Source of the DNA: Filifactoraceae bacterium
GTDB taxonomy: Bacteria > Bacillota > Clostridia > Peptostreptococcales > Filifactoraceae
Assembly (NCBI GenBank): GCA_041853585.1
Contig: JBGZSM010000069.1
Coordinates: 867-64,866, forward strand
Direction: 5' to 3'
Length of the DNA: 64,000 nucleotides
Positions 4,081 to 45,826 of this stretch are shown piece by piece (the first letter of the stretch is position 1; every line of letters begins with the position of its first letter). The position numbers and the translations under genes are program-made. The notes under the pieces are model-generated. The model was not told the origin of the DNA. It worked only from the letters and a program-made list of their open reading frames with translations, and searched no databases.

Positions 4081-5453
4081 CAACAACCTCTTATCATTTT
4101 CATAAAGTATTGTCGGCTGACAAAAGCGCTTCCCCACGACATTTTGAGCACTTCTTTGAGACCGTATTTTTTTATCATCTTAACGATGCTGCGCGGACGC
4201 ATCACAATGCGATAGTAGAGCAAAATGATTTGCCAATAATATGCTCGAATGCTCATATGCGCCGGTTGCAGAACGATATGCGCCAAATCCCACTTCGGAT
4301 AATCTTCGCGCGTGACGATGATGTCGTCGGCATAGCTCTCAAAAATATCCGTCCCCGGCAATGGGGTGAGCGGCTGCAAATTGACAAAGGTGATATCCAT
4401 CTCTTTGATATGTTTCTCCAGCTCGCGAAAATCATTCTTGCTGTAATCCAAATTGAGTATCATCGTCGCATACAGCTCAATCTGATATTTTTTGAGAATA
4501 TCGACCGCTTTGCGATTGGTTTCGACCGTCGTCTTTTTGTTGAAATTCTGCAAATCTTTTTTTCGAACGGATTCGATGCCGACGATGACGGCGCGCAATC
4601 CGTTTTTGGAAAGCCGCTCTATCAGCGCTTCGTTGTTGGCAATAAAATCCGCTCTGCCGTAAACCAAAAATCGCTTATCCAATCCTTCACGCTCGAGCAA
4701 ATCGCAAAATGTATTCAATCGTTTCGGATTGTATAAAAAATCATCATCCACAATGTAAATTTCCTGCTCCGGTATGCTTTTGAGCTCATCGATGACATCG
4801 TGAATGTCTCGCGCAAAATATTTGCCGTCGGTCACCTCTTTGCAGAAACAAAAGCTGCAATCGAAAGGACAGCCGAAGGAAGTTTTGACCAGAGCGCAGG
4901 GATTGTGGAACATATAATAATATCGCGCGCGATACTTCGCCACCTTGTGACGAGCGGGTGGATGATAAGGAAAGCTCGCAAGCTTCTCCTGCTTCATGCC
5001 GGCGCGATAGGTTCCGCGAATATGCTCATCGCTTAAATCATTTTGTTTTTTCTCCATCGCTCTGTCAACGATGCGCGAGAAAGTACCAATCGGGTCCGCG
5101 CAGATAATATAGTCGATATAATCGTCCAAAAAATCTTCGGGCACGACTTCCGCATGCACCCCGCCCGCCACCGTAATCGTTTGAGGCGAAATTTCTTTTA
5201 TAATGCGCGCATATTCTTTGACAACGCCGACATGGGTGATATATCCGGTAATCCCGACCACATCGGGACGGTATTTTTCGATATAAAATTCCAGCGGCTT
5301 TTTCTCCAAAATCATATCCAAGATTGTCACTTCCGCCTTTTTGTCGGAAATGTTGGCAGCCACATACTCGAGCTCCAGCGGCTCGCAAATCATGACATGC
5401 TGCAAACCGATGGTCTCTTTCGGAGGCCTCGGTCTAATCAACAGAATCTGCAT
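4080..5453 (-). CDS. B12-binding-domain radical SAM protein (paralog 3)
   Basis: MQILLIRPRPP...DVVGITGY...GGVHA, followed by TSFGCPFDCSFC (CxxxCxxC). RBS aaaggag. Clearly paralogous to the ORFs at 6078-7448 and 8355-9779. Confidence 0.8.
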   Translation of the reverse strand: MQILLIRPRPPKETIGLQHVMICEPLELEYVAANISDKKAEVTILDMILEKKPLEFYIEKYRPDVVGITGYITHVGVVKEYARIIKEISPQTITVAGGVHAEVVPEDFLDDYIDYIICADPIGTFSRIVDRAMEKKQNDLSDEHIRGTYRAGMKQEKLASFPYHPPARHKVAKYRARYYYMFHNPCALVKTSFGCPFDCSFCFCKEVTDGKYFARDIHDVIDELKSIPEQEIYIVDDDFLYNPKRLNTFCDLLEREGLDKRFLVYGRADFIANNEALIERLSKNGLRAVIVGIESVRKKDLQNFNKKTTVETNRKAVDILKKYQIELYATMILNLDYSKNDFRELEKHIKEMDITFVNLQPLTPLPGTDIFESYADDIIVTREDYPKWDLAHIVLQPAHMSIRAYYWQIILLYYRIVMRPRSIVKMIKKYGLKEVLKMSWGSAFVSRQYFMKMIRGC

Positions 5454-6078
5454 CTTTTCTCCTTTTTCGAAAAACGCTTACCAAAATCGTAGGCATCCAT
5501 CGCCTTACCCGAATCACGAACATATCCTGAATAACCAAATCGGGATTGCAAAGCGATATCACTTCCTGCTTGGAGAGATACTTCGCCATGCCTGTCGTCG
5601 TCTTGGTCAAGGTGAATGCGATTTTGTCATACCAATTGTTAACCGAGCCATGCGCCAGTATGAGCAGCCCGTCCTCTTTCAAAAGCGTCGTCATATCGCG
5701 CACCGCCTTTTGCTGATTCTCATAATAGGGCAAGGAATGTGTGCAGGTGATGATGTCAAATCGCTCCCCGATGCTCAAAAGTTCTCCGACATCCTTGAGC
5801 AAAAATTTGGCAGCGGTATTTTTTTGCGTCGCGACATCAATCATCCCCTGCGAATAGTCGATGCCGAGTAGGGAAACATCCTTTCCGAAGCGCTGCTCAA
5901 TATCCACCAAAAGCTGCCCCGTTCCGCAGCCGATGTCGAGCAGCTTCTTCCATTCCTCTGACCGGTATTTTGCAATCGTTGAGAGCACCGCTTCTCTCGT
6001 TACGGATAAAGAATATTTTTGCATCCACAACCGCTCGTAGCGTCTCGACCAGTAATTCCAAATTTTTTTATTCGACAT
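5434..6078 (-). CDS. Class I SAM-dependent methyltransferase
   Basis: Motif I LLDIGCGTGQL, with a downstream FDIITCTHSLPY segment. It overlaps both neighbours (1 nt and 20 nt). Confidence 0.75.
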   Translation of the reverse strand: MSNKKIWNYWSRRYERLWMQKYSLSVTREAVLSTIAKYRSEEWKKLLDIGCGTGQLLVDIEQRFGKDVSLLGIDYSQGMIDVATQKNTAAKFLLKDVGELLSIGERFDIITCTHSLPYYENQQKAVRDMTTLLKEDGLLILAHGSVNNWYDKIAFTLTKTTTGMAKYLSKQEVISLCNPDLVIQDMFVIRVRRWMPTILVSVFRKRRKDADSVD

Positions 6079-7448
6079 CAGTCCAAATACATCTTTCTCA
6101 GCAAGTATCGCGACAGCATTCTTTTGAAATATTTCAAATCCAAAAAGTCATACAGCCCCGCCTTGCGTGCTCTCTTGTAAAGTTTCATAAACAAATCGTA
6201 ATAATGACGATAGAATTGCTTTTTCGTCAAATTTTTCGGCTCGAGCACGAGATGTAAAAAATCCCAGTCCTCAATATTGTCCGAGATGATTTCATCCTTG
6301 TATTCTTCATACAGCGGCGTGCCCGGAATCGGTGTGAAAATCGAAATCGTGACATGCATCACCTGATTTTGAACAACCCAATCGTAAATTCTGTCAAAAT
6401 CCTCCTTGGTCGCTTCGACACCGACAATCATCAGCGCAATACATTCGCCGCCCGCTTCCCGAATGACGCGCACCGCCTGCTCATTGTTGGTTACGGAAGT
6501 TCGCTTATTGTACGCGAGCAATTCTTTGTCGCTCGTCGCTTCGAGTCCGACCAAAAAATATTTGAATCCGATATCGACAAGCGCTTGGACGATTTCTTTA
6601 TTTTGTGACACGAAATCGGCTCGGGCGTAACAAGTGTAGGTTTTTTGAATTCGATTCTCTTTGACCAGACGAATGAACTCCCACAGTCTTTTTTTATCCA
6701 CCAAAAAATCATCATCGACGATTTGAATATTATCGACCTCTATCCCGCGAAGCTCCTCGATGACCAAATCCAAATCGCGCACCTGATAGCTGCCCTGATT
6801 GAGCAAGGTGCAATAACAGAATTTGCAATCGAAGGGACAGCTGAACGATGTCTTGAGCGTCGCCATCGGCGTCATATCCAAATATCGAAATCGATGCTTA
6901 TGCTCGTAGAAAAAACTTCGCTCGGGAATCGGCAAGCTGTTGATATCGACTCGCTCATACGGATTGACAATCCAATTTCCCGATTTATCCCGATGACAAA
7001 GCCCGTTGATTTCCGATGGAGAAATCGCCGGCTTCACTTTCTTTTTCAGAGATTCAATCATCCTTATCAAGTCAACGAAGCCGTCCACCGATTCGCTGCG
7101 TACGATAAAATCGATGTTTTCATCATAGAAACGCTGATAATTCAGCTGCGCATGGACTCCTCCGACCAGCGTGACGATGCTCCTGCGAAACTTTTTCGCT
7201 TCGGCAAACATTCTCTTCATCACATTTTCATGAGTCAGATAGCCGGTGATGGCGACCACATCGGGATCGTATTTTTTTAATACCTTTCTAAAAGGCTTGT
7301 TCTCACAAATATAGTCAAAGATATAATCTTCGTAGCCTGCCTGCATCAAGCCCGTATGCAAATACTCCAACTCCAAAGGCTCATTGTCAAGCATGCCTGT
7401 AAAACTCAATTTATTCGGTGCCGGTGGTCTTACCAAGAGCACTTTCAT
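6078..7448 (-). CDS. B12-binding-domain radical SAM protein (paralog 2)
   Basis: MKVLLVRPPAPN...DVVAITGY...GGVHA, followed by TSFSCPFDCKFC. The start at 7448 was chosen from the RBS aaaagga. Confidence 0.8.
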   Translation of the reverse strand: MKVLLVRPPAPNKLSFTGMLDNEPLELEYLHTGLMQAGYEDYIFDYICENKPFRKVLKKYDPDVVAITGYLTHENVMKRMFAEAKKFRRSIVTLVGGVHAQLNYQRFYDENIDFIVRSESVDGFVDLIRMIESLKKKVKPAISPSEINGLCHRDKSGNWIVNPYERVDINSLPIPERSFFYEHKHRFRYLDMTPMATLKTSFSCPFDCKFCYCTLLNQGSYQVRDLDLVIEELRGIEVDNIQIVDDDFLVDKKRLWEFIRLVKENRIQKTYTCYARADFVSQNKEIVQALVDIGFKYFLVGLEATSDKELLAYNKRTSVTNNEQAVRVIREAGGECIALMIVGVEATKEDFDRIYDWVVQNQVMHVTISIFTPIPGTPLYEEYKDEIISDNIEDWDFLHLVLEPKNLTKKQFYRHYYDLFMKLYKRARKAGLYDFLDLKYFKRMLSRYLLRKMYLD

Positions 7449-12400: not shown

Positions 12401-12740
12401 TTTGTCCTCCTCATTCATAAATAACAAATCCATCGTGTTGTCAATCCGCACATTGCGCTTGCACTAGATAACCTGAAAGTTCAATCTTCAAAACTCAATG
12501 CTTGTGAAAAATTCTAATGGATTAACAAAATACGATGTCTTGTGCATTATACCCTTTATTACAAATTGATGTCAATAGAAAAGAATTTACAAAACAGTAA
12601 CAAAATCAGTCAATTCGTGACCAAGAATTATTCATTCGGCTCGCATCGAGAGATTTTTAATACAAAAAACTCTTTTCGATTCGCTCTTTATTTTTATCTT
12701 CCCTTGTTTTCATATCCGCACAAAATCCTGTAACGACAAT

Positions 12741-13487
12741 CTATCCGAGCTCTCCATCCGTCATATCTTCGACGAGATGACGCCAATAATATTTCGGCAA
12801 ATTGCTCTGCTGCAATTTTTTATTTTGACGCTCGCGAATCGAAATGCTTTTATGAAAAACATTCCACAAAAATGCGTATTCCAATTCGGCATCGCTCCAC
12901 TTGATTTCGACTTTTTCGGTAAAAAATAAATCGATGCGCTGTCCGTCATAGTATGCGAGCATATTTCTTTTTTTGTCATAGATAGCAAATCGCTCTCGCA
13001 CCAGTCGATTTTTAAAATGGGAAAGCAGTATCGGCAACACATTATTTTTCGGCTCAATGGTCGAAAACAATGTGCCGTCGTGCATTTCTCGAAATCGCAG
13101 AAGTCCCAGATAGCGATGACGCTCACGCAACACATTGCGCACCAACTTGTTCATTTGCAAGGCATATTCGTCCACCGATTCCAAAATCCCTTCTCCACAT
13201 TCCATCGCCCGAAAAATCATCCGCACGATGATTTCGTCTTTGTGCGGCTCGCAGGACAAAAAACAGGCTTGCAAATCCGCAAAAAATTGATACGAAAATT
13301 TTTCGCGCAGATATTTTTCAACGCGCCGCGCTTTTTCAACATCGGTCGCCACATAGATTTCGCTCGTGTCAAAGGCGAGCTGCTCCGGCTCGGCGCTGAT
13401 TCTTCCTAGTTCTTTACGGTGTTTGTAGGATTCAAAGACGACGCTCAACAGACCGTCAAAATCCCCGTCATAGTAATAATGATACAT
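12741..13487 (-). CDS. DUF4130 / TIGR03915-type probable DNA metabolism protein
   Basis: MYHYYYDGDFDGLLSVVFESYK N-terminus and RF.E..DG.L....EP...V C-terminal half. It overlaps the stop of the radical SAM partner gene. Confidence 0.7.
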   Translation of the reverse strand: MYHYYYDGDFDGLLSVVFESYKHRKELGRISAEPEQLAFDTSEIYVATDVEKARRVEKYLREKFSYQFFADLQACFLSCEPHKDEIIVRMIFRAMECGEGILESVDEYALQMNKLVRNVLRERHRYLGLLRFREMHDGTLFSTIEPKNNVLPILLSHFKNRLVRERFAIYDKKRNMLAYYDGQRIDLFFTEKVEIKWSDAELEYAFLWNVFHKSISIRERQNKKLQQSNLPKYYWRHLVEDMTDGELG

Positions 13488-14767
13488 TACTCCCCTCCAT
13501 TTCCCAATAATGAAGCGGCATTTGCTTTGTCAAAAAAACCGATTTGCTGAACCGCAGGCTTTTCTCCTTCGAGCAAAAGATTTCGGATGCTGCTCGGATT
13601 TTCCTTATACAAACCGTAATATTTCCCATCGACCGTAATAAAATACTTCGCGCGTTTGAGCACCACGCCGATTTTCTTCAAATGCTCGTATTGAATTTTA
13701 CTATGCTTTCGCGCTTTGATGATGCGCAGCGCTGAAGTGACACCCAAACCGGGAATGCGTAGCAAATCATTATAGGACGCCGTATTGATCTCCATCGGGA
13801 AGCGATGCCAGTTGTGAATCGCCCAATTCGCCTTCGGGTCGAGCAGCGGGTCGAAAAAAGCATTCTGCTCGCTGAGCAATTCGTCGGCGCGAAATTTATA
13901 AAACCGCAGCAACCAATCCGCTTGATACAGGCGATGCTCACGAAGCATCGGCGCAGCACCGACATGAGCCAGCGCGCCCGTTTTGTTCACCGGAATGTAG
14001 GCGGAATAATACACTCTTTTGAGTCCGAAACCATTGTAAAGTTGCTCGCTCTTGTTTAAAATCGTGTAATCGCTTTCGCCGCTCGCGCCGATAATCATCT
14101 GCGTCGTCTGTCCCGCCGGCACAAAACTCGGCGTGCTCTTAAACAATGCTTTCTCCTGAAAGCGCTGAATCTGATGACTATAAATCCGGCTCATCGATGT
14201 GATGATGTCGCTCACTTTTTTATCCGGTGCAAGCAGCTGCAGTCCCTGATTGTCCGCCATCTCAACATTCACCGAGACTCTGTCGACATACATGCCCAAG
14301 GTCTGTATCAATTCTTGGCTCGCTCCCGGAATCACCTTCATGTGAATGTAGCCGTTGAATTTTTCTTCGACGCGCAATCGTCGGGCAACGGCAATCAATC
14401 TTTCCATCGTGTAATCCGGATTTTTCAAAATGCCGGAGCTTAAAAAAAGTCCTTCGATATAATTTCGACGATAGAAGTTGATGGTCAAATCGACGATTTC
14501 ATCCGGCGAAAGTGTCGCCCGCTCGATATCGTTGCTGCGTCGGTTGACGCAATAAGCGCAATCGTAAGCGCAATGATTGCTCATCAATATTTTGAGCAAT
14601 GAAATGCATCGCCCGTCCGCCGACCATGAATGACAGATGCCGCTCTTTGCCGCGTTTCCGATTCCATCCGTCGTATTTTTTCGCTCGCTGCCGCTGGATG
14701 AGCAAGACACATCGTATTTTGCCGCGTCGCTGAGAATTCTTAACTTGTCCTGTGTCGATTGATTCAT
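13487..14767 (-). CDS. Putative DNA modification/repair radical SAM protein (HhH C-terminus)
   Basis: DAAKYDVSCSSSG...CAYDCAYCVNR radical SAM motif, with a C-terminal LLRIPGLGVTSALRIIKAR helix-hairpin-helix. The start ATG at 14767 is supported by the RBS aaggaggag. Confidence 0.8.
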   Translation of the reverse strand: MNQSTQDKLRILSDAAKYDVSCSSSGSERKNTTDGIGNAAKSGICHSWSADGRCISLLKILMSNHCAYDCAYCVNRRSNDIERATLSPDEIVDLTINFYRRNYIEGLFLSSGILKNPDYTMERLIAVARRLRVEEKFNGYIHMKVIPGASQELIQTLGMYVDRVSVNVEMADNQGLQLLAPDKKVSDIITSMSRIYSHQIQRFQEKALFKSTPSFVPAGQTTQMIIGASGESDYTILNKSEQLYNGFGLKRVYYSAYIPVNKTGALAHVGAAPMLREHRLYQADWLLRFYKFRADELLSEQNAFFDPLLDPKANWAIHNWHRFPMEINTASYNDLLRIPGLGVTSALRIIKARKHSKIQYEHLKKIGVVLKRAKYFITVDGKYYGLYKENPSSIRNLLLEGEKPAVQQIGFFDKANAASLLGNGGE

Positions 14768-15193
14768 TTGCTCCTCCTTGCTCAATTTCCGGATTCGAAT
14801 CGGGATTGCAGACGGACTTTACCGCCTCCGTTGATTTATATATCCAATTAAACTTGATTTCGAATCTCGCTTCTTTTCCATTCCGTATTTACTTTTACAT
14901 TTCACTTGCAATTGTGATTTCGGTTTTCTATTCGATTCTTATTCCGATTTAAAGTGCACTCACTTTTCGAAAAAATTCATCCGCAACTTTTCCCGAAAAT
15001 ACATCATAACTATTCTTTTTAATTTCTTTTTTTCTTATATTTTTCCGTTTACGATATTATATCACGCGAAAAAGAAAAAAACCGGAAATCTTGAAAATTT
15101 TTTCGATAAATTTTTTGAAAGGCTTGCCAAGGATATTTTTTTGCGATACTGTTAAAGAAAGGAATACGAAAAAATTTATAAGGACGGAGAACT

Positions 15194-15697
15194 ATGAAAA
15201 CAGCGCTATGTATTCAAAGGATGATTGACTTTTACAATGGGGATGTACGCGAAATCAATCATTTCTTAAAGGTGTATGCTTTTGCACGAACGATTGGAAG
15301 AGCGCAGGGTCTTGATGAACGAATGCAGGAAATTTTGGAAGTCGCGGCAATCGTTCATGACATCGCCTGCCCTTTGTGCCGAGCAAAATACGGACATGCG
15401 GATGGAAAAATGCAGGAATTGGAAGGACCGCCGCTCGCGAAGGATTTTTTGATATCGCTCGGTTATGAGGATGATTTCATTTCAAGAATTTGTTTTCTGG
15501 TCGGGCATCATCACAGCTACGACGAGGTCGATAACATCGATTATCAAATTTTGCTGGAAGCCGATTTTTTGGTCAATGCTTTTGAGAGTAACTACTCGGC
15601 AAATGCGATTGAAAAGGCGGCGGCAAATATTTTCAAAACCGAAACGGGATTGCAGCTTTTAAAATCCATGTATATTGCCAAATCCGTGGGAATATAG
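15194..15697 (+). CDS. HD-domain phosphohydrolase
   Basis: AAIVHDIA (H-D motif) and a downstream GHHH segment. Complete ORF with an RBS. Confidence 0.6.
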   Translation: MKTALCIQRMIDFYNGDVREINHFLKVYAFARTIGRAQGLDERMQEILEVAAIVHDIACPLCRAKYGHADGKMQELEGPPLAKDFLISLGYEDDFISRICFLVGHHHSYDEVDNIDYQILLEADFLVNAFESNYSANAIEKAAANIFKTETGLQLLKSMYIAKSVGI

Positions 15698-15803
15698 TAT
15701 AAAAGGTATCGCTGCGGTTTTCATCGATTCGCAAACGAACACATCGCAGGATACCTTTTTTACATTCTCTTTTTTACAAGTTACAGCGCGATTTCCGTAC
15801 GGA

Positions 15804-16187
15804 TTATTTCTTGCCGTCGGTTTTCTCTTGGAATTTCCGATTGTTGATAATAAAGCGCTCATGTGTTCCTTCACCAATCAAGCCTTTTTCATCATAGGCT
15901 TTGAGTTCGAATTTGAGTTTGCGCTCATCAATTGCCACCAATTCGCTTTCGCAATACACTTTCATGCCGAGCGGAGTCGCCGCAATATGTTTTACATCGA
16001 GCGAAATGCCGACGGTTCCATCGCCCTCCGGCAAAAATTCGCTCATGCTCATCCATGCCGTTTTTTCCATCAGCGCAATCATCGCCGGTGTCGCAAACAC
16101 ATCCAGCGTTCCGCTGCCCAAGGTTTTTGCCGAATTGTTTTCACTTACCGTAATTTCCTGTCTTCCTTTGATTCCGATTTTCAACAT
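15804..16187 (-). CDS. Hotdog-fold thioesterase (FlK-like family)
   Basis: 127 aa; V...NSA..LGSGTLDVFATPAMIALME...GTHERFII resembles FlK-type acyl-CoA thioesterases. Confidence 0.6.
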   Translation of the reverse strand: MLKIGIKGRQEITVSENNSAKTLGSGTLDVFATPAMIALMEKTAWMSMSEFLPEGDGTVGISLDVKHIAATPLGMKVYCESELVAIDERKLKFELKAYDEKGLIGEGTHERFIINNRKFQEKTDGKK

Positions 16188-16219
16188 AATATTTCCTTTC
16201 CAAGTTTTTTAATACATTT

Positions 16220-16257
16220 TTATTTTCCGTTTCGAATTTTATTTTCCATTTCGAATT
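16220..16257. repeat. Tandem 19-bp direct repeat (ttattttccgtttcgaatt / ttattttccatttcgaatt)
   Basis: Two adjacent units with one mismatch, each carrying a TTCGAA palindrome. They lie between the phaC terminator and the thioesterase start. Confidence 0.8.
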
Positions 16258-16311
16258 TCGTTTTTCAAATCCGATTTTATTTCAACTATATGGTATCAAA
16301 TCCCGGATGGA

Positions 16312-16356
16312 ATGTAAATAAAAATACCTACACTTCATTTGAAATGTAGGTATTTT
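16312..16356 (-). terminator. Rho-independent terminator after phaC
   Basis: On the minus strand, aaatacctaca-loop-tgtaggtattt is followed by TTTTATTT. Confidence 0.7.
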
Positions 16357-16406
16357 AAATTTGAGATGCGCCCGTCCTTGAACAGAGCAGTGCAGCCATC
16401 TTCATT

Positions 16407-17477
16407 TTATTTTGTCTTTGATTTCTCTTTCAGCCATTTGGAAATAAGTGGAGCGACTTCTTTTTTCGCTTTGGAACTCACATACATTCCGATATGTCCC
16501 GTCGGTATTCCGTGAGTCTCAATATCTTTCGTTCCGACATATTTTGCAAGCGGAATACTTGCAGCCGGCGGCACGATATGGTCTTTTTCCGCATATACAT
16601 TGAGTACGGGCATTGTGATATTTTTCAAATCCACCTTCGCATCGCCAATCATCATCTTGCCTTTAATCAATTTGTTTTCTTTGTAAAGGTCATTGATGAA
16701 TTGTCGAATTGTTTCTCCCGCTTGACCCGGACTGTCAAAAATCCAGTTCTCCATACGCAGGAAGTTGTTCATCACTTCCGGTTTGTCAAAGTCATCAATG
16801 AGGTTGAGATATTTTCCAACCATCAGCGAAATCGGCTTCATTGTCAAGAATCCGTTGTTCATAAAATCGCCCGGAATGACTCCGTACGCATCGACCATCT
16901 TGTCAATGTCCAGATATTTTCCCCATCGGAACAACAATCCGTCATCCGTTGAGAAATCCACCGGTGCAACCATCGTTACCAACGCATTGATATTTTGCGG
17001 ATGAAGTGAAGAGTACATTAAAGAGAAAGTTCCGCCCTGACATACGCCGAGCATATTGATTTTCTCTTTTTTGGAATGTGCCTTGACCGCCTCGACCGCA
17101 TTATCGATATAGCCTTGAATATAATCTTCCAAAGTCAGATATCTGTCTTCCGCTGTCGGATATCCCCAGTCGATAATATACAGATCCTGCCCGTCTCTGA
17201 GCATATTCTGCACAAAGCTCGTATCTTCCTGCAAGTCCATCATGGTCTCGCGATTTACCAAAGCATAGACAATCAGAGTCGGTACTTTGTTGATGCTTCG
17301 AACAAGCGGTTTGTATCGATACACTTTCATCTTGTCTTCCGAATAAATCAATGTTTTCTCGGAGAAACCCGGCTCCGGGTCTCCTGCATGAAGCATCGTT
17401 TCAAATCCCTCAAGCAATTTTTTCTGAGTTTGTATGCTTTCCTCAAAGCTTTTCTTCCAATCAAATGTTTTGTCCAT
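16407..17477 (-). CDS. phaC: Class III poly(R)-hydroxyalkanoate synthase catalytic subunit
   Basis: About 355 aa alpha/beta hydrolase with the lipase-box-like GVCQGG (Cys nucleophile) and a conserved C-terminal H (TGHIGMYVS). Confidence 0.8.
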   Translation of the reverse strand: MDKTFDWKKSFEESIQTQKKLLEGFETMLHAGDPEPGFSEKTLIYSEDKMKVYRYKPLVRSINKVPTLIVYALVNRETMMDLQEDTSFVQNMLRDGQDLYIIDWGYPTAEDRYLTLEDYIQGYIDNAVEAVKAHSKKEKINMLGVCQGGTFSLMYSSLHPQNINALVTMVAPVDFSTDDGLLFRWGKYLDIDKMVDAYGVIPGDFMNNGFLTMKPISLMVGKYLNLIDDFDKPEVMNNFLRMENWIFDSPGQAGETIRQFINDLYKENKLIKGKMMIGDAKVDLKNITMPVLNVYAEKDHIVPPAASIPLAKYVGTKDIETHGIPTGHIGMYVSSKAKKEVAPLISKWLKEKSKTK

Positions 17478-17507
17478 TAAAAATTCTCCCTTCAAGATAC
17501 ACATAAT

Positions 17508-18806
17508 CTACTCCTGAGTCTGAACCGGAACAACGGCCTGCGCTTTTTTCATTGCTTTCAGTTCTTTTTTCAATTCGTAAATCGTTTTATACAGGCTGTC
17601 AATCTCACTTCTTGTCACGATTGGTGTATCCGAGAGATATCTTTCAACCAATTTTTGCATCTCGATTTTGTAATCCATCGCCGCAGAAGAAAGTTGACCC
17701 AACATCTTCGCATATTCCGGAGTGGCAAAGTAAGAATCGAAAACCCCTTCCAATTCATTGGACCAGTAAGTGTAGAACTCATTGAAAGTTTTTGGCTGTG
17801 TTCCCTGCTCCGCCATTTCAAGATACTTTTTAATCATATCATCCAGATTCTCATTTTGCACCGCAAAAATTCTGGAAGTGAAATCCGTACTGAGCAATAC
17901 CATATCCACATAGGTGTCAAAAGCCTTGCTCTGTTGCTCAATAAGCTCCTTGTTTATGCCCAGCGAAGGAGAAAGCAAAATCGCTCCGAAAGTTCTGTCA
18001 AACTGTGCTCGCCAAAGCTCAAAGAACTCGCCGAGTTTGGTTTTGTCCGTCAGCACACCTTCAACGAACAAATCACGAAGCTGTTTTGCATTGCTTGTCC
18101 ACGGCTCAAAGAAATTGCCATTTGTTTTTGCATACGCTTTGAACAGCTCAAACGGATCTTTAGCAAAAGATTGGAACTCCTGAGGAAGCATCGGCAATAC
18201 CATATCTTTGAACATCACATCATATTTTTCAGCTAAAGTGGATGCATATTTTTTCACTTCATCGGAAATCGGTTTGATATGCGTATCTTCCAACTCTTTC
18301 CAGAACTTATATACATTCAGATAATATGTGTTCGCCTGCATCATTTTTTCCAGTAAATCTTTCGCCGCCGGGGTAAATGCCTTACCCATCTCCAGCGGAT
18401 TGTAATATCCTCTCAGCTTGTCAAAATATTCGTGGATGCTCTCCTGAGACTCTGCCCATTTGCTCATATCTACAAATGGAAAAGCGCCGGACTTTCCGAA
18501 GTTGGAAAAATCGGCCATATATTTGGACATCTGCTCCATATAATTCTTTTGCATATCCACGAAAAACTCAAATGCTTTCGGGTCAAAAGCCGGATTCTTA
18601 AAGTAATCCGTAAAAATCTTGCTCAACTCCGCCGGATTGTTTGTCCCCATCGTTTCCATAAATTTCTTTTGCATTTCAAAAAAGTCGCTCATAGATTTTG
18701 TATAAGGATTCTCGGAAACATTGGACATCTTTTTATACATATCCTGCCAAGATTCCATCATACTCTTTTGGCTATCCATCATCGTTTTGAAAAAATCATT
18801 GCTCAT
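17508..18806 (-). CDS. phaE: PhaE-like subunit of class III PHA synthase
   Basis: Immediately upstream of phaC. A repetitive F/W/M-rich helical protein with a C-terminal coiled segment (RSEIDSLYKTIYELKKELKAMKK), as in PhaE. Confidence 0.5.
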   Translation of the reverse strand: MSNDFFKTMMDSQKSMMESWQDMYKKMSNVSENPYTKSMSDFFEMQKKFMETMGTNNPAELSKIFTDYFKNPAFDPKAFEFFVDMQKNYMEQMSKYMADFSNFGKSGAFPFVDMSKWAESQESIHEYFDKLRGYYNPLEMGKAFTPAAKDLLEKMMQANTYYLNVYKFWKELEDTHIKPISDEVKKYASTLAEKYDVMFKDMVLPMLPQEFQSFAKDPFELFKAYAKTNGNFFEPWTSNAKQLRDLFVEGVLTDKTKLGEFFELWRAQFDRTFGAILLSPSLGINKELIEQQSKAFDTYVDMVLLSTDFTSRIFAVQNENLDDMIKKYLEMAEQGTQPKTFNEFYTYWSNELEGVFDSYFATPEYAKMLGQLSSAAMDYKIEMQKLVERYLSDTPIVTRSEIDSLYKTIYELKKELKAMKKAQAVVPVQTQE

Positions 18807-39203: not shown

Positions 39204-39227
39204 CTATATAATAGGAAGAGATTTTTT
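39204..39227 (+). repeat. Copy of the 24-nt motif ctatataataggaagagatttttt
   Basis: Exact 24/24 match to 744-767. It lies 10 nt beyond the stop of the aspartokinase N-terminal fragment. Confidence 0.8.
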
Positions 39228-39237
39228 CAGAGAATGA

Positions 39238-39561
39238 TTAAGAAGGGATTTTTTCGAGTTCGTACTCGTTAAAACGATTTAGTTTTTCCTGCTGCATATC
39301 ATACAGTTGAATCAATAAATCGGTCACCTTGATGTCATCATCAAATCTTTTGCCCGGTGCGGAAACGACGATACAGCATCGCTCCTCCTGACACTCAACG
39401 ATGGCCTTCACTTTTCGAAATTGAATCGAATCGCACAAAGAAGAGCCGCCGAATTTCGCGACAGTCTTTTTACAAACGACTTGTTCGCTCGTCATCGTTA
39501 CCATGCTCCCCCCGTTATTTGTGTTTTGCAATAATAATCTTTCCATTGGCTCTCCTTTCAT
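39238..39561 (-). pseudogene. Detached N-terminal fragment (about 60 homologous residues) of an aspartate kinase
   Basis: VAKFGGSSLCDSIQFRKVKAIVE...CIVVSAPGKRFDDDIKVTDLLIQL is the AK nucleotide-binding N-terminus. The ORF then ends after about 20 unrelated residues. Confidence 0.7.
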
Positions 39562-39721
39562 TAAAATTTTTTTTGGGTTTTTGTTTTAGTTTTGTCCGTA
39601 ATATAAAGACTGTTGTTTTTTAATTATAGACAATTATAACAAAGCATTTTAAAAAATGCAAGCACTTTTGAATTTTTTTATTCAAAAAATGTCCTTGTGA
39701 GCATTATTGCTGCTCAATTTT

Positions 39722-40684
39722 TTATTTTTGTTTCTGATTTTGAAGCTCTCCTTCCCTTGATGTCGGCAAGACATCCGACGAAATCCGCTCGATGTCAAAT
39801 GGTGTTTCCTGATACACAAAATAGTTGAGCCAGTTGGAAAAAAATAAATTGGCATGCGCTCGCCAGCGCACATGAATTTTCTCCTGCTCGTCTTCAAAAT
39901 AATTGCTCGGCATCGCAGTCGCCAATCCCAAATCCCTGTCGCGCAAATATTCCTGATACAAGGTATCGGCATTGTATTCAAAATGTCCTGATACGAAAAT
40001 TTGGCGATTGTCCTTGGATGTTACGATGGCGGCACCCGTCTTTTCACAGCCGGCTATCAGCGTAAGCGCCGGATGATTCATTATGGAATCCAGCGGATTG
40101 AGCGTATATCTTGACTGCGGAATAAAAAATTCATCATCGAATCCTTTCGTAATCAGCGAAGATGCTCGCAGCTTGTACGGAAAGATGCCGAATATTTTTT
40201 CCGTTCGCTCCTGTTTTCCAATTCCGTAATAATGATAAAGTCCCGCCTGCGACGCCCAACAGATAAACATCGTCGAAAAGACATTGGTTTTGGCAAAATC
40301 AAAAATTTCGCCGAGCTCTTTCCAATAATCTACTTCTTCAAAATCCATTTTTTCAACCGGCGCTCCGGTCACAATCATCGCATCGTATTTGTTGCGCCGA
40401 ATGTCGCCGAAAGTTTTGTAAAATCGTGCCAAATGCGAAGCGCTCGTGTTCTTGGATTGATAGCTGTCCGTTCGTACAAAGTCAACCGACACTTGCAAAG
40501 GCGTGTTGGAAAGCATGCGAAGCAATTGCGTTTCCGTTTCTTCTTTTTTCGGCATCAGATTCAAAATTGCAACGCGCAGCGGTCGAATATCCTGCGTTTT
40601 TGCTCTTTGCGGCGTTATTGTAAAAATTTGTTCCTCTTGTAAAATGCCGTTTGCCGGCAAATCTTGCGGTATGATGAGTGGCAT
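39722..40684 (-). CDS. metA: Homoserine O-acyltransferase
   Basis: LRVAILNLMP.K..TE.Q..R.L..TPLQV...FICWA.QA.L.H.YGI, the MetA pattern. Confidence 0.85.
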   Translation of the reverse strand: MPLIIPQDLPANGILQEEQIFTITPQRAKTQDIRPLRVAILNLMPKKEETETQLLRMLSNTPLQVSVDFVRTDSYQSKNTSASHLARFYKTFGDIRRNKYDAMIVTGAPVEKMDFEEVDYWKELGEIFDFAKTNVFSTMFICWASQAGLYHYYGIGKQERTEKIFGIFPYKLRASSLITKGFDDEFFIPQSRYTLNPLDSIMNHPALTLIAGCEKTGAAIVTSKDNRQIFVSGHFEYNADTLYQEYLRDRDLGLATAMPSNYFEDEQEKIHVRWRAHANLFFSNWLNYFVYQETPFDIERISSDVLPTSREGELQNQKQK

Positions 40685-40695
40685 AGTTCCTCCTA

Positions 40696-41982
40696 CTAAA
40701 TTCGAGCGAGCGCCTGCTCCAAATCTCGAATAATATCCTGCGCGTCTTCAATTCCGCAGGACAATCGCAATCCGTTGGGCTTGATTTGCGCTTTTTTCAA
40801 ATCTTCTTCGGAAAGCTGTCGATGGGTCGAGCTTGCCGGATGTAAAATATGCGTTCGCACATCGCAAACATGTACGACCAAGGTCGCCAGCTCCAATGAA
40901 TCGATAAATTGTTTCGCTTGCTGTGCACCGCCGCAAACTCCAAACATAATGACCCCGCCGCCGCCGCGCAGATATTTTTTTGCATTCTCATAAGTCGGCG
41001 AATTCTCCAGTAAAGGATAATTCACAAAATCGACTTTGGGATGCTTCTGCAAAAACTCGGCAACCGCCAGTCCGTTTTGCGAATGTCTTTCCATACGCAA
41101 AGCCAGCGTTTCGATTCCGAGCGTTGTCAAAAACGCGTTGAACGGACTCATCGTCGCTCCCAAATCTCGCAGAAAAACCACTCTCGCCTTCGTGATAAAG
41201 GCGGCATTGCCGAAGCTTTGTGTGTAGCTGAGTCCGTGATATGCCGAATCCGGCTCGGTGAGATGCGGAAACTTTCCATTCGTCCAATCAAATTTTCCCG
41301 CATCGACAATCAAACCGCCGACGCTGGTCGCATGCCCGTCCAAATACTTCGTCGATGAATGGATGATGACATCCGCTCCCCATTCAACCGGGCGACACAG
41401 ACAAGGTGTCGCGAAAGTATTATCCACAAAAAGCGGCAAGCCGTTGCGATGTGCAATTTCGGCGAGTCGCTCGACATCAAGCACATCGACATTCGGATTT
41501 CCGATAATCTCGGTGTAAATCAGCTTCGTATTCGGACGAATGGCTCGCTCGATTTCTTCATCACTTGAATCAAATCCGACAAAACTGACCTCTATCCCGA
41601 ATTTCTTGAAAGTCGTCCCGAGCAAGGTGAAAGTTCCGCCATACAAATTGTTGAGTGCCACGATATGCTCGCCCGTATTACAAATCGTGAGTATCGAAAG
41701 TAAAATCGCCGCCTGCCCCGACGAGGTTGCCAAAGCGCCGACTCCTCCTTCGAGCGTTGCAATTTTGGATTCCAAACTTGCCACCGTCGGATTGGAAATT
41801 CTGCTATACATGTGACCTTCTTTTTGCAAATCGAACAATGCGGCAACCTCATCCGCGCTGTCGTATTGATAGGTCGTACTTTGAACAATCGGCAATATTC
41901 TCGGCTCTCCGTTTTTCGCTTCATAGCCCGCCTGCACGCATAAAGTATCGGTGCTGAACTTTCCAAATTCAAACTTCGTCAT
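40696..41982 (-). CDS. metY: O-acetylhomoserine sulfhydrylase (PLP-dependent Cys/Met metabolism family)
   Basis: GHMYSRISNPT...SSTKYLDGHATSVGG (PLP lysine). The start at 41982 follows the RBS aaggagga. The longer track ORF runs into the T-box terminator. Confidence 0.8.
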   Translation of the reverse strand: MTKFEFGKFSTDTLCVQAGYEAKNGEPRILPIVQSTTYQYDSADEVAALFDLQKEGHMYSRISNPTVASLESKIATLEGGVGALATSSGQAAILLSILTICNTGEHIVALNNLYGGTFTLLGTTFKKFGIEVSFVGFDSSDEEIERAIRPNTKLIYTEIIGNPNVDVLDVERLAEIAHRNGLPLFVDNTFATPCLCRPVEWGADVIIHSSTKYLDGHATSVGGLIVDAGKFDWTNGKFPHLTEPDSAYHGLSYTQSFGNAAFITKARVVFLRDLGATMSPFNAFLTTLGIETLALRMERHSQNGLAVAEFLQKHPKVDFVNYPLLENSPTYENAKKYLRGGGGVIMFGVCGGAQQAKQFIDSLELATLVVHVCDVRTHILHPASSTHRQLSEEDLKKAQIKPNGLRLSCGIEDAQDIIRDLEQALARI

Positions 41983-42004
41983 AAAATCCTCCTTGCAATT
42001 TCCA

Positions 42005-42285
42005 ATAAAAAAAGCTCCTATCCCAAAAGGACAGAAGCTACTCCGTGATACCACCTTTATTTATTTTTGCCTCGCGACAAAAAACTCCGCGGGTACAATC
42101 ATACCCCGACGCTGTAACAGGCGCACCCGTCCGAGCCTACCTATCGACCCGGCCCACAAAAAGACCATCTTCCACACGATTTTTGTTATCCCCTCACACC
42201 CAACGGGGACTCTCTGAAACATACTTTCGAATGTACTCTTCTTTCTATAAGGTTTATTCGCGATCTCTCGCTTGATTTAATTTCG
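42005..42285 (-). promoter_or_regulatory. T-box leader, probably Met-specific, controlling metY-metA
   Basis: Minus strand reads: gaaagaagagta (S-turn/AGUA), cagagag (AG bulge), ttgggtgtga distal loop, ggaagATGgtc candidate specifier (42166-42168), T-box aaaggtggtatcacgg, then terminator agcttctgtcc-tttt-gggataggagct plus T7. Confidence 0.75.
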
Positions 42286-42288
42286 TTC

Positions 42289-42317
42289 ATTCTAGCAAAG
42301 AACAATAAAATTGTCAA
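42289..42317 (-). promoter_or_regulatory. SigA-type promoter for the T-box leader
   Basis: TTGACA, 17-nt spacer, TAGAAT on the minus strand. Confidence 0.65.
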
Positions 42318-42456
42318 TACATTTTTTAAATTTTAAAATATGATTCTGTTTTCTGATTTTACATTTTGAAATACGATTTTTTTGGATTTCCAATTTGCGA
42401 TTTATATTTTATTTTTCATTTTGTATTATGAATTTCAAATTTCAAATTCGGCTTCA

Positions 42457-43533
42457 TCAATCCAAATAGCCCATCGCCTTAATCATTTCGGCAACCAACA
42501 ATGCCCCGCCCGCCGCGCCGCGCAAAGTATTGTGCGACAATCCGACGAATCGGTAGTCAAAAATCGAATCCTCGCGCAAACGACCCGCCGACACCTGCAT
42601 TCCTTTTTGTGCCTCACGCTCCAACTTGGTCTGCGGTCGGTTGTCCTCTTCAAAATATACGATAAAAGGCTTCGGCGCCGATGGCAAATTCAGCTTGTCG
42701 ATGGCGGTTTCAAAATTTTTCCATCGTGCCAAAATTTCTTCCCTTCTCGGCTTCTTGTCAAATTTGACCGAAACGGTCGCCATATGTCCGTCGCTCACCG
42801 GCACGCGAATACATTGCGCTGAAATAACCGGCTCGCTTGCAGGCAGAATTTCCCGCTCGATTACTTCACCCAAGATTCGAAGCGGCTCCTTCTCGCTTTT
42901 TTCTTCTTCGCCGCCGATAAAAGGAATCACATTGTCCACCATCTCGCTCCAAGTGTCAAAAGTTTTTCCCGCACCCGAAATCGCCTGATAGGTGCTGACG
43001 ACAACCTCCTTCAAACCGAAATCTCTAAGTGCAAAGAGCATCGGCACATAGCTTTGGATGGAGCAATTCGGTTTTACCGCAATAAATCCTTTTTTTGTGC
43101 CCAATCTTTTCTTTTGCGCCTCCACAATTTCGATATGATTTTTATTCAGCTCCGGAATAATCATCGGCACATCCTTGGTCCAACGATTCGCCGAATTGTT
43201 CGATACGACGATGACTTCAGCTTTGGCATATCTTTCCTCCAGCTCGACAATCGCCTGCTTGTCCATATCCAACGCACAGAGCACGAGCTCGACCTGCGGC
43301 ACGATTTTTTCCAAGTTGTGCACATCCTCCACAATCATATCCTTGACATAGTTCGGCATCGGCGATTTCAAATTCCAACGACCGCGCACCGCTTCCTGAT
43401 AGGATTTTCCCTCGGACGATGCACTCGCCGCCAATACTTTGACATCGAAATACGGATGATTTTCAAGCAGTTGGATAAAGCGCTGCCCAACCATTCCGGT
43501 CGCACCCAAAATTGCAATATTTGTCTTTTTCAT
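42457..43533 (-). CDS. asd: Aspartate-semialdehyde dehydrogenase
   Basis: NIAILGATGMVGQRF N-terminus, active-site PNCSIQ region, and a C-terminus with SHNTLRGAAGGA. Confidence 0.85.
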   Translation of the reverse strand: MKKTNIAILGATGMVGQRFIQLLENHPYFDVKVLAASASSEGKSYQEAVRGRWNLKSPMPNYVKDMIVEDVHNLEKIVPQVELVLCALDMDKQAIVELEERYAKAEVIVVSNNSANRWTKDVPMIIPELNKNHIEIVEAQKKRLGTKKGFIAVKPNCSIQSYVPMLFALRDFGLKEVVVSTYQAISGAGKTFDTWSEMVDNVIPFIGGEEEKSEKEPLRILGEVIEREILPASEPVISAQCIRVPVSDGHMATVSVKFDKKPRREEILARWKNFETAIDKLNLPSAPKPFIVYFEEDNRPQTKLEREAQKGMQVSAGRLREDSIFDYRFVGLSHNTLRGAAGGALLVAEMIKAMGYLD

Positions 43534-43565
43534 ATCGACTCCATTCTCTTACAAGCGATTGGTCA

Positions 43566-45248
43566 TCATGATTTGAGCAACATTCTCGCAATATTGATAA
43601 TGTCGCTGACTACTGCGGACGCCGTCGGTCTTGAACCGGCTCCCTGTCCTTGTAAAAATAAGACGCCGGCATTGTCGCAGCTGATTTGAATTGCGTTGCC
43701 CGCCCCATCGACATGCGCCAGCGGCAACTCCTTCGGCACTTCCATCGGCTCTACGGCAACATGCGGCTCTCCGTCTTTCAAAAATGCGCGCCCAATCAAT
43801 TTAACAACGGTATGATTTTGTTTCGCCAACTCGAGTTGCTCCTTGGTCAATTCACAGATTCCCTCGCGCGTGATATGCTCCGGTTTCGGATATTCCCCAA
43901 AGCATTGCTTGCACAAGATACACATTTTATAAACCGAATCGTAACCTTCGACATCCGATGTCGGGTCCGCCTCTGCAAATCCGAGCGCCTGCGCATTTTT
44001 GAGCGCTTCTTCATAATCGGTGCCCTCTTTGGTCATCGAGCTTAAAATATAATTGGTCGTTCCATTGATGATTCCCGACAATTCCAAAATTCGATTGCCT
44101 TCCAGCGATTCGTTGATGGTTCGAATAATCGGAATCGCACCGCCCACCGATGCCTCAAATAAAAATTCCACCTTGTTCTTCTGCGCGATCTCTTCCAATT
44201 CGCCTTTGGCAGCGGCAATCGCCAATTTGTTTGCCGTCACGACATGCTTTTTGTTCTGCATGCTCGCAATCATAAATTCGCGCGCGTCTTCGTCCCCGCC
44301 AATCAACTCGACCACAATATCAATCGAATCGTCTTTTAAAATTTCGTCAAAATTATCCGCCAGCAATTTTTTCGGCACATTGCCATGCTTCTTCCGGTCC
44401 TTGACCAAAATCTTTTTGATAACAATATGCGCATCTTCCCCCGTCGTTTCTTTGAGACGAGAAGAAATCTGCTGCGCATTTTCACGCAGAATCGCCTCGA
44501 CACCTTTTCCTACTGTACCGAAACCAAGCAATGCTACACAAATCATTTTTTTCTTAGTATCTGAAATCATCGTTCCTTCATCCTCCGGTTTGTTTGTATT
44601 TTTGATTTGGATGGGAATGTTCTTTTCCTGCGCCGGCTTGATTGCGTCCTTGTGATACACCTGTGCCCCGTCTTGCGTAATCTTCATCAGTTCTTCATAA
44701 CTCAAATGCTCAATCGTCGTCGCCGATTTGTCTTTTCGCGGATCCGCCGTCATAATCCCCGACACATCCGTCCAATTTTCATACAAATCCGCACTGAGTC
44801 CCCTTGCCATGATAGAGCCCGTAATATCCGAACCGCCACGCTCGAAGGTTTTGATATTGCCTTCTTTGTCAATTCCGTAAAAACCCGGTATCACTACATT
44901 CTTTTTATCGCCGACGCGTTTTTCAATCGCTCGATAAGTTTTTTCCTCATCCAATTTGCCACTGCTATCAAAATAAATCAATTCTTTTGCGTCAATAAAT
45001 TCATACCCTAAATACTCCGCCATTATCTTTGCATTTAAAAATTCTCCGCGGCTCACGATGAAGTCACGCTGGTCACACAATAGCAATTTCTCGATTTCCG
45101 CCTCGATTTCCGAGCGAAAAGCAGGACTCAAATCCAGTGAATTACAAATTTCCGCATATCGCGATTTCAAATGCTCAATCAGCTTTCGAATTTCTTCATC
45201 CGCCTTCATTTCCTCAAAAATATTTTTACTGAAATAGTTTTTGCTCAT
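43566..45248 (-). CDS. Aspartokinase catalytic domain lacking its N-terminal about 60 residues and its ACT domains, fused to homoserine dehydrogenase
   Basis: The AK core (SRGEFLNAKIMAEYLGY...VIPGFYG...ERGGSDITGS...YENWTDVSGIMTADPR) runs directly into HSD (LLGFGTVGKGV...EASVGGAIPII...NGTTNYIL...DP..DVEG.D). There is no KFGGSS motif; that motif is found at 39238-39561. Confidence 0.75.
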   Translation of the reverse strand: MSKNYFSKNIFEEMKADEEIRKLIEHLKSRYAEICNSLDLSPAFRSEIEAEIEKLLLCDQRDFIVSRGEFLNAKIMAEYLGYEFIDAKELIYFDSSGKLDEEKTYRAIEKRVGDKKNVVIPGFYGIDKEGNIKTFERGGSDITGSIMARGLSADLYENWTDVSGIMTADPRKDKSATTIEHLSYEELMKITQDGAQVYHKDAIKPAQEKNIPIQIKNTNKPEDEGTMISDTKKKMICVALLGFGTVGKGVEAILRENAQQISSRLKETTGEDAHIVIKKILVKDRKKHGNVPKKLLADNFDEILKDDSIDIVVELIGGDEDAREFMIASMQNKKHVVTANKLAIAAAKGELEEIAQKNKVEFLFEASVGGAIPIIRTINESLEGNRILELSGIINGTTNYILSSMTKEGTDYEEALKNAQALGFAEADPTSDVEGYDSVYKMCILCKQCFGEYPKPEHITREGICELTKEQLELAKQNHTVVKLIGRAFLKDGEPHVAVEPMEVPKELPLAHVDGAGNAIQISCDNAGVLFLQGQGAGSRPTASAVVSDIINIARMLLKS

Positions 45249-45268
45249 TGATTCCTACCTTTTCTGTA

Positions 45269-45333
45269 TAAAAAAAAGACTGCAAGCAGTCTTTCGCACA
45301 CAAAAACATGAGTTTCCGCTCATAGCGGAACTC
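45269..45333 (-). terminator. Two tandem terminator-like hairpins immediately upstream of the AK-HSD start codon
   Basis: On the minus strand, gagttccgc-tatga-gcggaaactc is followed by atgtttttg, and aagactgc-tt-gcagtctt is followed by T8. The second ends about 20 nt before the ATG at 45248. Confidence 0.6.
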
Positions 45334-45396
45334 TAATACAAAACTAAAACAAAAACTAGCTTTAATATACTACATTTTTTGTCTTTTGTAAATGTT

Positions 45397-45444
45397 TTTT
45401 TTGCGCCGCAAGTTGCATAATTTGTTGTATAGCAGTTCTCATAG
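45397..45444. repeat. 48-nt imperfect direct repeat, copy A
   Basis: ttttttgcgccgcaagttgcataatttgttgtatagcagttctcatag; 38/48 identical to copy B. Nine of the ten differences are transitions. Confidence 0.75.
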
Positions 45445-45550: not shown

Positions 45551-45573
45551 TAACTTGACACGACCTTTTAGTA

Positions 45574-45621
45574 TTTTTTGTACCACGAGTAGCATAATTT
45601 GTTGTATAATAGTTTCTATAG
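45574..45621. repeat. 48-nt imperfect direct repeat, copy B
   Basis: ttttttgtaccacgagtagcataatttgttgtataatagtttctatag; shares the exact 17-mer gcataatttgttgtata with copy A. Confidence 0.75.
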
Positions 45622-45826
45622 AGATTTCTCCTTTGTAAGATGATTTTTGTGTTCAAATCTATTTTACCACATTGGAGCCAATCTCTATTTCTTTTCTAAA
45701 ACTCCCACAACTATTTTACACTATCGTCGCTTTATGAAAAATTATTTCAGAAATCATCTGTAATATTTTCTTTCTCCATATTAAAATTTCTCCTATTATC
45801 TCCTGCTACAGATTTTGAATCGGTTA

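Follow-up and report, generated by a model that had tools for sequence, protein, structure and literature searches.

Aspartokinase (AK), which opens the pathway to methionine and threonine, appears in the stretch analyzed here (the window, 64,000 nucleotides (nt) of a Filifactoraceae genome) only as two incomplete open reading frames (ORFs), which lie about 4 kb apart on the same strand with the C-terminal part first. The locus raises the question whether a gene divided in this way is a decaying remnant or still gives rise to an enzyme. The residues conserved on both pieces, the selection acting on them and the position of the break in a predicted structure argue for a functional, naturally split heteromeric AK that would assemble by fragment complementation, to which we assign a probability of about 80%. 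The genome of the window (G000) is a draft of 2.57 Mb in 104 contigs, and the genes described below are on the minus strand. The small N-terminal AK ORF is called AKn, and the 560-amino-acid (aa) ORF, in which the C-terminal AK part (AKc) is joined to a homoserine dehydrogenase (HSD), is called AKc::HSD.

Two complementary pieces of one aspartokinase

The three coding segments in question are as follows.

44553..45248, minus strand: AKc, the C-terminal ~3/4 of the AK catalytic domain, residues 1-232 of the 560-aa protein (Pfam AA_kinase 56-234, NF006540 56-294)
43566..44552, minus strand: HSD moiety, fused in frame to AKc (PF03447 + PF00742; NF004976 387 bits; no C-terminal ACT)
39238..39546, minus strand: AKn, 102 aa (NF006540 2-63; 15/15 invariant residues)

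The 560-aa ORF (43566-45248) starts inside the AK fold, with the second helix of a hairpin insert, and runs straight into HSD. In Pfam, positions 56-234 of the 234 positions of the AA_kinase profile matched its residues 40-217, followed by NAD_binding_3 and Homoserine_dh, and the small ORF matched positions 1-62 of the same profile. The best NCBIfam aspartate kinase model was also identical for both, NF006540, with positions 2-63 on the small and 56-294 on the large ORF. The pieces thus abut and belong to one subfamily; a first-pass annotation of the letters had placed them end to end without any overlap, which holds apart from the few profile positions by which the two matches nominally overlap. 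When a classical 441-aa AK was compared with the whole genome by tblastn, two sites only were found, residues 1-60 corresponding to AKn and 69-279 to AKc, and nothing matched past residue 279. Pfam detected no ACT domain on either piece. The description given by the first-pass annotation, namely a truncated AK without ACT running into HSD, its lost N-terminus about 4 kb downstream on the same strand after metA, and complementary halves of one gene in the order C-half to N-half, was borne out by these searches.

The open frame of AKn spans 39238-39561, and the gene caller placed its start (MERLLL) at 39546, 5 nt after AAAGGAGAG (102 aa, P0121). The ORF comprises the ~55 first residues of the AK fold (beta1 with the KFGGSS loop, alphaA, beta2 with VVSAPGKR, and the KVTDLL helix), flanked by an N-terminal extension of 30 aa and a tail of 26 aa. 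AKn has the K-F-G-G-S/T-S Gly loop and the V-V-S-A-P-G-K/R strand, and AKc has the SRGE, PGFYG, F-x-RGGSD and DLYENWTDVxG...DP motifs; residues 26-243 of AKc align to residues 74-292 of 3tvi, the closest match in the PDB. Neither ORF reached the NF006540 cut-off of 434 bits for a single-chain AK (228.7 bits for AKc::HSD, 80.1 bits for AKn), and the models for bifunctional AK-HSD proteins (NF006959, NF007003) gave 252 bits (cut-off 726) and 158 bits (cut-off 582). The HSD part exceeded the cut-off of its own model NF004976 (387.4 bits, cut-off 205) and is a genuine member of that family, with coverage of profile positions 2-322 of 430, which means that the C-terminal ACT part is missing from HSD.

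Both pieces are under selection. Between G000 and its close relative G005, AKn showed eight synonymous and one non-synonymous change, with a ratio of non-synonymous to synonymous rates (dN/dS) of 0.029 (neutral P ~2e-5), and AKc showed 17 and three, respectively, with a ratio of 0.040 (neutral P ~3e-10). The corresponding values were 0.059 for HSD, 0.048 for asd, 0.050 for metY and 0.089 for metA. Purifying selection on AKn and AKc is thus as strong as that on asd, metY and metA. In comparison with the more distant G004, identity was 67% for the AKn core, 60% for AKc and 62% for HSD. Of 56 columns that are invariant in an alignment of 50 AKs, AKn retains 15/15 (14/15 in the relative L023) and AKc 39-40/41 in every lineage, with 40/41 in the window.

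The first-pass annotation had concluded that the AK domain was probably dead and that only HSD might still work. Such a decay would fit a catalytic domain that is interrupted, pieces in the wrong order ~4 kb apart, and scores that for each piece alone remain under the family cut-offs. However, no internal stops were found, dN/dS is 0.03-0.04, and both pieces are kept as intact ORFs in 4/4 lineages that are 55-62% identical to one another. In addition, the invariant residues are kept, the ribosome-binding site (RBS) is conserved, AKn survived three further changes of context, and no other AK was found. Judged by these features neither piece behaves like a pseudogene, and we consider decay very unlikely. 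That the same split should be conserved in relatives had been named by the first-pass annotation as the observation that would speak for a functional split gene, and this was indeed observed.

A search for a further lysC or ask gene, which the first-pass annotation had recommended, found none in three genomes: PF00696 matched only AKc and a pyrH-like 240-aa ORF (contig C6) in G000, and G005 and G004 contained no further AK or HSD. The enzymes downstream of AK are intact (asd, HSD, metA, metY). A MetH-type methionine synthase of ~805 aa is present in G000, G004 and G005, MetE is absent, and thrB-thrC are located on contig C103. The only substrate of the asd product is aspartyl phosphate. If AK were dead, asd, hom, metA, metY, metH, thrB and thrC would be useless, yet they are conserved. 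With respect to the diaminopimelate (DAP)/lysine branch, the sole gene of the dihydrodipicolinate synthase (DHDPS) family encodes NanA, and no DapF was found in four genomes of the genus; these organisms seem to lack DAP/lysine synthesis entirely, and AK would then serve homoserine formation only. A need for DAP or lysine was considered as proof that AK is essential and was rejected, since the DHDPS hit is NanA and DapF is absent. The nanA gene is part of a sialic-acid cluster (contig C85, ~12700-18750) with NanE, a ROK kinase and an ABC transporter.

This pathway context also bears on the possibility that both pieces are retained and translated in another capacity, AKc as an appendage of HSD and AKn in some other role, with the metabolites made otherwise or imported. 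The absence of ACT domains, the absence of the DAP/lysine branch, which leaves AK not indispensable, and a K44Q exchange in AKn of L023 are compatible with this explanation. It is nevertheless unlikely, because nearly all catalytic and invariant AK residues persist on both pieces across 40% divergence, which is unexpected for a non-catalytic role, because asd directly follows AKc::HSD in 4/4 lineages, and because no other AK was found in the genomes searched.

To see where the break falls in the structure, AlphaFold (AF2) was run with the 50-sequence alignment on the AK domain of L119, an intact relative with a MetA::AK fusion protein. The model had a mean predicted local distance difference test score (pLDDT) of 92 and a predicted template modelling score (pTM) of 0.90, and it superimposed on 3tvi with a template modelling (TM) score of 0.87 and a root-mean-square deviation of 2.5 Å. 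Its elements are beta1 (residues 6-10, with the KFGG loop), alphaA (18-29), beta2 (34-39, VVSAPG) and a two-helix hairpin formed by a helix at 52-71, a turn at 72-76 with a dip in pLDDT, and a helix at 77-104. The break sits in a charged insert of variable length, which is this hairpin. With the conserved TD54 and R97 as reference points, AKn extends to ~74-95 and the beginning of AKc falls at ~58-68, depending on the lineage, so that the first hairpin helix is on AKn, the second on AKc, and the break at the hairpin tip. Together the pieces have 9-38 residues more than the intact insert. The geometry in the model would be expected if duplicated copies had been truncated independently of each other. 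It also favours non-covalent reassembly, and we infer from it that the pieces associate: AKn would insert its two strands into the sheet of the N-lobe and the hairpin helices would pack against each other, giving an active AK.

Ancestral operon and proposed history of the split

The genes between the two pieces belong to the same pathway, and the order on the minus strand is AKc::HSD, asd, T-box, metY, metA, AKn.

42457..43533, minus strand: asd, aspartate-semialdehyde dehydrogenase (NF006416 462.8 bits, cut-off 232)
42024..42317, minus strand: T-box leader of metY-metA, including promoter-like site and terminator (Rfam RF00230)
40696..41982, minus strand: metY, O-acetylhomoserine sulfhydrylase (TIGR01326 579.8 bits, cut-off 495)
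39722..40684, minus strand: metA, homoserine O-acyltransferase, free-standing (PF04204 1-298 of 298)

The metY product has 428 aa as called in L026, an independent assembly of the same locus, and the open frame extends to 42054. The T-box was found at 42024-42258 with 92.6 bits (E=1e-19; gathering score 93). A scan gave a promoter-like site (TTGACA-17-TAGAAT) at 42289-42317 and a terminator at 42013-42039. The same T-box precedes metY in G004 (L020 3510-3756).

Five genomes of the family (G008, G010, G012, G015, G019) have the AK most similar to AKc inside a ~600-aa protein whose first 300 residues are MetA. Such ~600-aa MetA::AK fusions were also found in G003 and L119; their Pfam architecture is HTS + AA_kinase (PF04204+PF00696) without ACT. 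G008, G015 and G019 show the order metY - metA::AK - hom - asd, in which hom is a gene of its own (325 aa, lacking ACT). The fusion, hom and asd also succeed one another in G010, and in G003, which belongs to the genus of the window, the intact fusion is followed by hom. Compared with the operon of these sister genera, the order in the window is a circular permutation opened inside AK, and the position of AKn after metA mirrors the ancestral MetA::AK junction. The first-pass annotation had assumed an ancestral AK-HSD gene and had suggested to look for an intact copy between metA and asd in relatives. An intact AK was indeed found, but in the arrangement metY - metA::AK - hom - asd with hom as a separate gene, and the partner of the AK N-terminus was thus MetA instead of HSD. 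As judged from these sequences, the AKc::HSD fusion is derived and would involve three changes, namely a cut in AK, fusion of its C-terminal part to the adjacent hom, and release of metA. No paper describing a MetA-AK fusion or an AK whose catalytic domain is split came up in a literature search.

Two further observations concern the intact operons. In G019, a S-adenosylmethionine (SAM) riboswitch (L016 10433-10528, 77 bits) controls metY - metA::AK - hom - asd, in place of the T-box that precedes metY in the split clade, which indicates that the regulator was swapped on a homologous operon. In the metagenome contig L119, metA::AK (5001-6797) occurs without hom or asd beside a gene for an Rce1-like protease and a TerB / BrxC-D / helicase cluster that resembles a defence island.

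AKc::HSD proteins are rare. A large protein database contained only a handful, with 61-65% identity. The split forms fall into four lineages. The first comprises G000, G005 (97% identical) and L026 and has the order of the window, with AKn after metA. The second (G004 type, at least 172 assembly blocks) has the order aminotransferase - leader - AKc::HSD - asd - AKn, with an AKn of 96 aa that has its own promoter-like site and with T-box-metY-metA on another contig. In the third (L023), AKc::HSD - asd is followed by an AKn of 91 aa, and the gap of 22 nt between asd and AKn contains an RBS with AAAGGAGG. The fourth (L024/L025, and L118 from the same samples) shows AKc::HSD - asd and asd - terminator - AKn - thrC. 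AKn is thus an intact ORF in four lineages and four different gene contexts.

In a tree rooted on the intact relatives, the split forms were one clade (99/98 support), within which the four lineages formed a polytomy, and the end of AKn and the start of AKc are at equivalent positions across lineages. One clade with equivalent break positions points to a single fission event followed by long divergence, and both pieces would have been kept through at least three later changes of neighbourhood. Standalone AKn-like proteins elsewhere were considered as further cases and rejected, since they start with MKVVKFGG, run past the split point and resemble truncated or frameshifted ordinary AKs.

An explanation by metagenome assembly, in which the permuted order is an artefact, could be suggested by the draft state of the genome and by the fact that G005 and G004 contigs stop just upstream of AKc::HSD, at a repeat. 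Its probability is negligible. L026, which was assembled independently from another sample, is 99.98% identical to the window across 8,648 nt; the matching span begins 399 nt ahead of the 560-aa ORF, extends past AKn and covers all internal junctions. The G005 contig has the same gene order as the window, the G004-type order recurs in the assembly blocks mentioned above, and L023 is again independent. As a separate observation, at the end of contig C137 of G004 (L021 4300-4604) the AKc leader is joined, via a shared stretch of ~10 nt, ATGAAAATTG, to a segment from inside AKc (residues ~126-159) in reverse complement; this junction reflects either a chimeric assembly or an inversion that varies within the population.

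The following course of events is proposed. The ancestor would have had the operon metY - metA::AK - hom - asd, with an AK lacking ACT, which provided the homoserine needed to make methionine and threonine. A single ancestor of the small clade would then have had its AK cut at the hairpin tip, where the KVTDLL helix gives way to the ERFEEI helix. The N-terminal product, comprising beta1 and its catalytic Lys/Gly loop, alphaA, beta2 and the first helix of the hairpin, would have become the free AKn of ~100 aa, and the remainder from the second hairpin helix onward would have fused to HSD, leaving metA free. The order AKc::HSD-asd-[T-box-metY-metA]-AKn would most likely have resulted from a tandem duplication of the operon with complementary truncations. 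We infer this route from the permuted order, from the fact that AKn adjoins metA in G000 and from the extra residues around the break. A tandem duplication with loss of both outer ends had already been put forward in the first-pass annotation; it is plausible, with metY - metA::AK - hom - asd as the duplicated block. A one-step excision, circularisation and re-integration fits the gene order as well, and the order in G000 is favoured as the older one only because it explains AKn after metA. Two possible traces of the rearrangement were discarded: the AKn tail of L118 and the AKc head of L024 resembled each other too weakly to be convincing as a duplication footprint (35% over 23 aa, E=0.006 in a tiny search space), and the intergenic regions of G000 and G004 are too diverged to polarise the change in order, the RBS block alone being alignable.

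Leaders, expression signals and repeats

Both pieces have a leader of their own, and the two leaders share an inverted repeat.

39547..39661, minus strand: promoter-like site and 5' leader of AKn (perfect -10 TATAAT at 39623-39628; RBS AAAGGAGAG)
45249..45392, minus strand: leader of AKc::HSD (promoter-like TTTACA-17-TATATT, U-rich 5' stretch, hairpins, UUUGUUUUUGUG, RBS)
45338..45356: arm 1 of a 19-nt perfect inverted repeat, in the AKc::HSD 5' leader
39577..39595: arm 2 of the 19-nt perfect inverted repeat, in the AKn 5' leader

The -10 region of AKn lies ~70 nt upstream and was read by eye as part of TTGCAT-17-TATAAT; a scan scored TTAAAA-18-TATAAT. The RBS block ATGAAAGGAGA(G/A)CC is conserved in G004, where TTGCAA-17-TATAAT is located upstream. 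The AKc::HSD leader contains hairpin 1 (45314-45330) and the terminator hairpin 2 (45274-45295), with UUUGUUUUUGUG between them. The same layout with a conserved UUUGUUUUUGUG was found in L023 (60-237) and L024 (80-250). The hairpin sequences differ, and among the three sequences five pairs are changed on both sides with the structure kept. The leader had no match in Rfam; its layout is absent from G004 and replaced in G005. It could represent an undescribed attenuator or riboswitch-like element of the aspartate-to-homoserine operon. Since neither AK nor HSD carries an ACT domain, control at the RNA level, by the T-box on metY-metA and the terminator-bearing leader on AKc::HSD, would probably be the main regulation.

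The 19-nt repeat is unique in the 2.57-Mb genome, even when up to two mismatches are allowed, and none of 500 shuffles reached 19 nt. Its arms lie in the two 5' leaders, and the two mRNAs would therefore be complementary there. In G005, the copy in the AKn leader is altered, and the AKc leader diverges upstream of position -25 and is cut by the contig end. As a general coupling device the pairing was rejected, because G004 and L024/L118 show complementarity at chance level; L026 is too similar to the window to inform on this point. The repeat could be a regulatory device specific to this lineage or a remnant of a rearrangement. A further idea, possible but rather doubtful, is that AKn serves as a dissociable catalytic subunit whose supply sets AK activity and replaces allosteric control by ACT domains; this would involve the promoter-like site that AKn has for itself and, in G000, the position of AKn behind metY-metA with their methionine T-box and the mRNA coupling by the 19-nt repeat.

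The repeat is also relevant for the idea that a split intein, RNA trans-splicing or a programmed DNA rearrangement unites the two halves in one chain, which would suit the order with the C-half first on one strand and the presence of this unique element in the two G000 leaders. However, the 19-mer pairs one 5' untranslated region with the other, which is the wrong geometry for joining the 3' end of AKn to the 5' end of AKc, and it is absent from the other lineages, whose differing contexts leave no common recombination or splice sites. No Pfam match to Hint or intein domains was obtained for any AKn or AKc, whose tails and heads measure 20-41 and 29-39 aa, respectively, and no intron or ribozyme was matched in Rfam. 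Joining of the halves is therefore hardly credible.

Beyond the leaders, the repeat-bearing DNA that the first-pass annotation had noted at both ends of the block was confirmed in part. A segment of ~135-150 nt at ~45578-45725 has copies of 93-96% identity elsewhere in the genome, which are terminal on contigs C54, C93 and C4 and internal on C40 and C38, and it is found at many contig ends of G005. This dispersed repeat probably explains why contigs of the relatives end just upstream of AKc::HSD. The same region has an internal 44-nt repeat (~45394-45444 / 45571-45621). At the other end, a 27-nt motif at 39204-39230, just past the AKn stop, recurs about five times, with 96% identity at ~744-770 and on C3, C102 and C77.

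The proposed split enzyme in comparison with known systems

Several points weigh against a functional split AK. In the N-lobe, beta1 and beta2 occupy central positions, so that complementation, plausible as it is, would need co-folding of the two chains. The dN/dS values come from one close pair, as dS is saturated between the deep lineages, and the K44Q exchange in L023 affects an otherwise invariant position of AKn. Cells that import methionine and threonine would not strictly need AK. Finally, the polytomy and the location of AKn directly after asd in 3/4 lineages make the proposed route of origin less certain. The reading as a functional heteromeric AK is maintained at the probability given at the outset.

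A natural fragment-complementation pair would thereby become available for the amino-acid-kinase fold, with a split site at a hairpin tip that is usable in protein engineering. The intact (G003 and the g3 genera) and split relatives together would offer a case of duplication-degeneration-complementation at the sub-domain level. Annotation pipelines would call these genomes AK-negative or the pieces partial genes or pseudogenes, and metabolic reconstructions of the clade would then wrongly predict auxotrophy for methionine and threonine.

The nearest relative of the system is the MetA::AK operon (P0037, L119 type). It shares the AK subfamily (55-57% identity to AKc), AK and HSD without ACT, the genes of the pathway and the hairpin insert of AK. 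In contrast to the window, with its free MetA and two-piece AK, it has a single-piece AK fused to MetA and a separate hom; in the window the C-terminal piece is fused to HSD, the gene order is circularly permuted, and a T-box takes the place of the SAM riboswitch of G019. The closest solved structure, AK of Clostridium acetobutylicum (3tvi, NF006540/PRK09034-type), is a single chain with a C-terminal ACT region and, as judged from the alignment consensus, a shorter hairpin insert.

Like ThrA and MetL of E. coli, AKc::HSD has AK sequence N-terminal to HSD on one chain. Those enzymes, however, contain a complete AK and two ACT domains between AK and HSD, whereas the chain in the window lacks the ~60 first AK residues and ACT. 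By sequence, the AKc::HSD fusion appears to have arisen independently of ThrA/MetL, from adjacent AK and hom genes. AKs made of two polypeptides are known as the alpha/beta type (B. subtilis AKII, C. glutamicum LysC; 3aaw/3ab2), in which the small subunit corresponds to the ACT region and is translated from an internal start in the same gene. In these enzymes the catalytic domain is intact, whereas in the window the division runs through the catalytic domain, and catalytic residues are found on the small piece.

Natural split genes of prokaryotes occur in Nanoarchaeum equitans and as cyanobacterial DnaE with split inteins. As in these cases, the halves of the enzyme in the window are encoded by separate, non-adjacent genes, both of which are retained. 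To our knowledge, most described fissions lie between domains or are healed by an intein, and well-supported splits of one compact alpha/beta catalytic domain, with both halves long under selection, are rare. The split described here differs from known fissions by a break inside a single alpha/beta domain, the lack of an intein, the swap of fusion partners and the reversed order. Gene fission as an event is known; here it comes with a reversed order and a swap from MetA::AK + HSD to MetA + AKn + AKc::HSD, and its product is probably functional.

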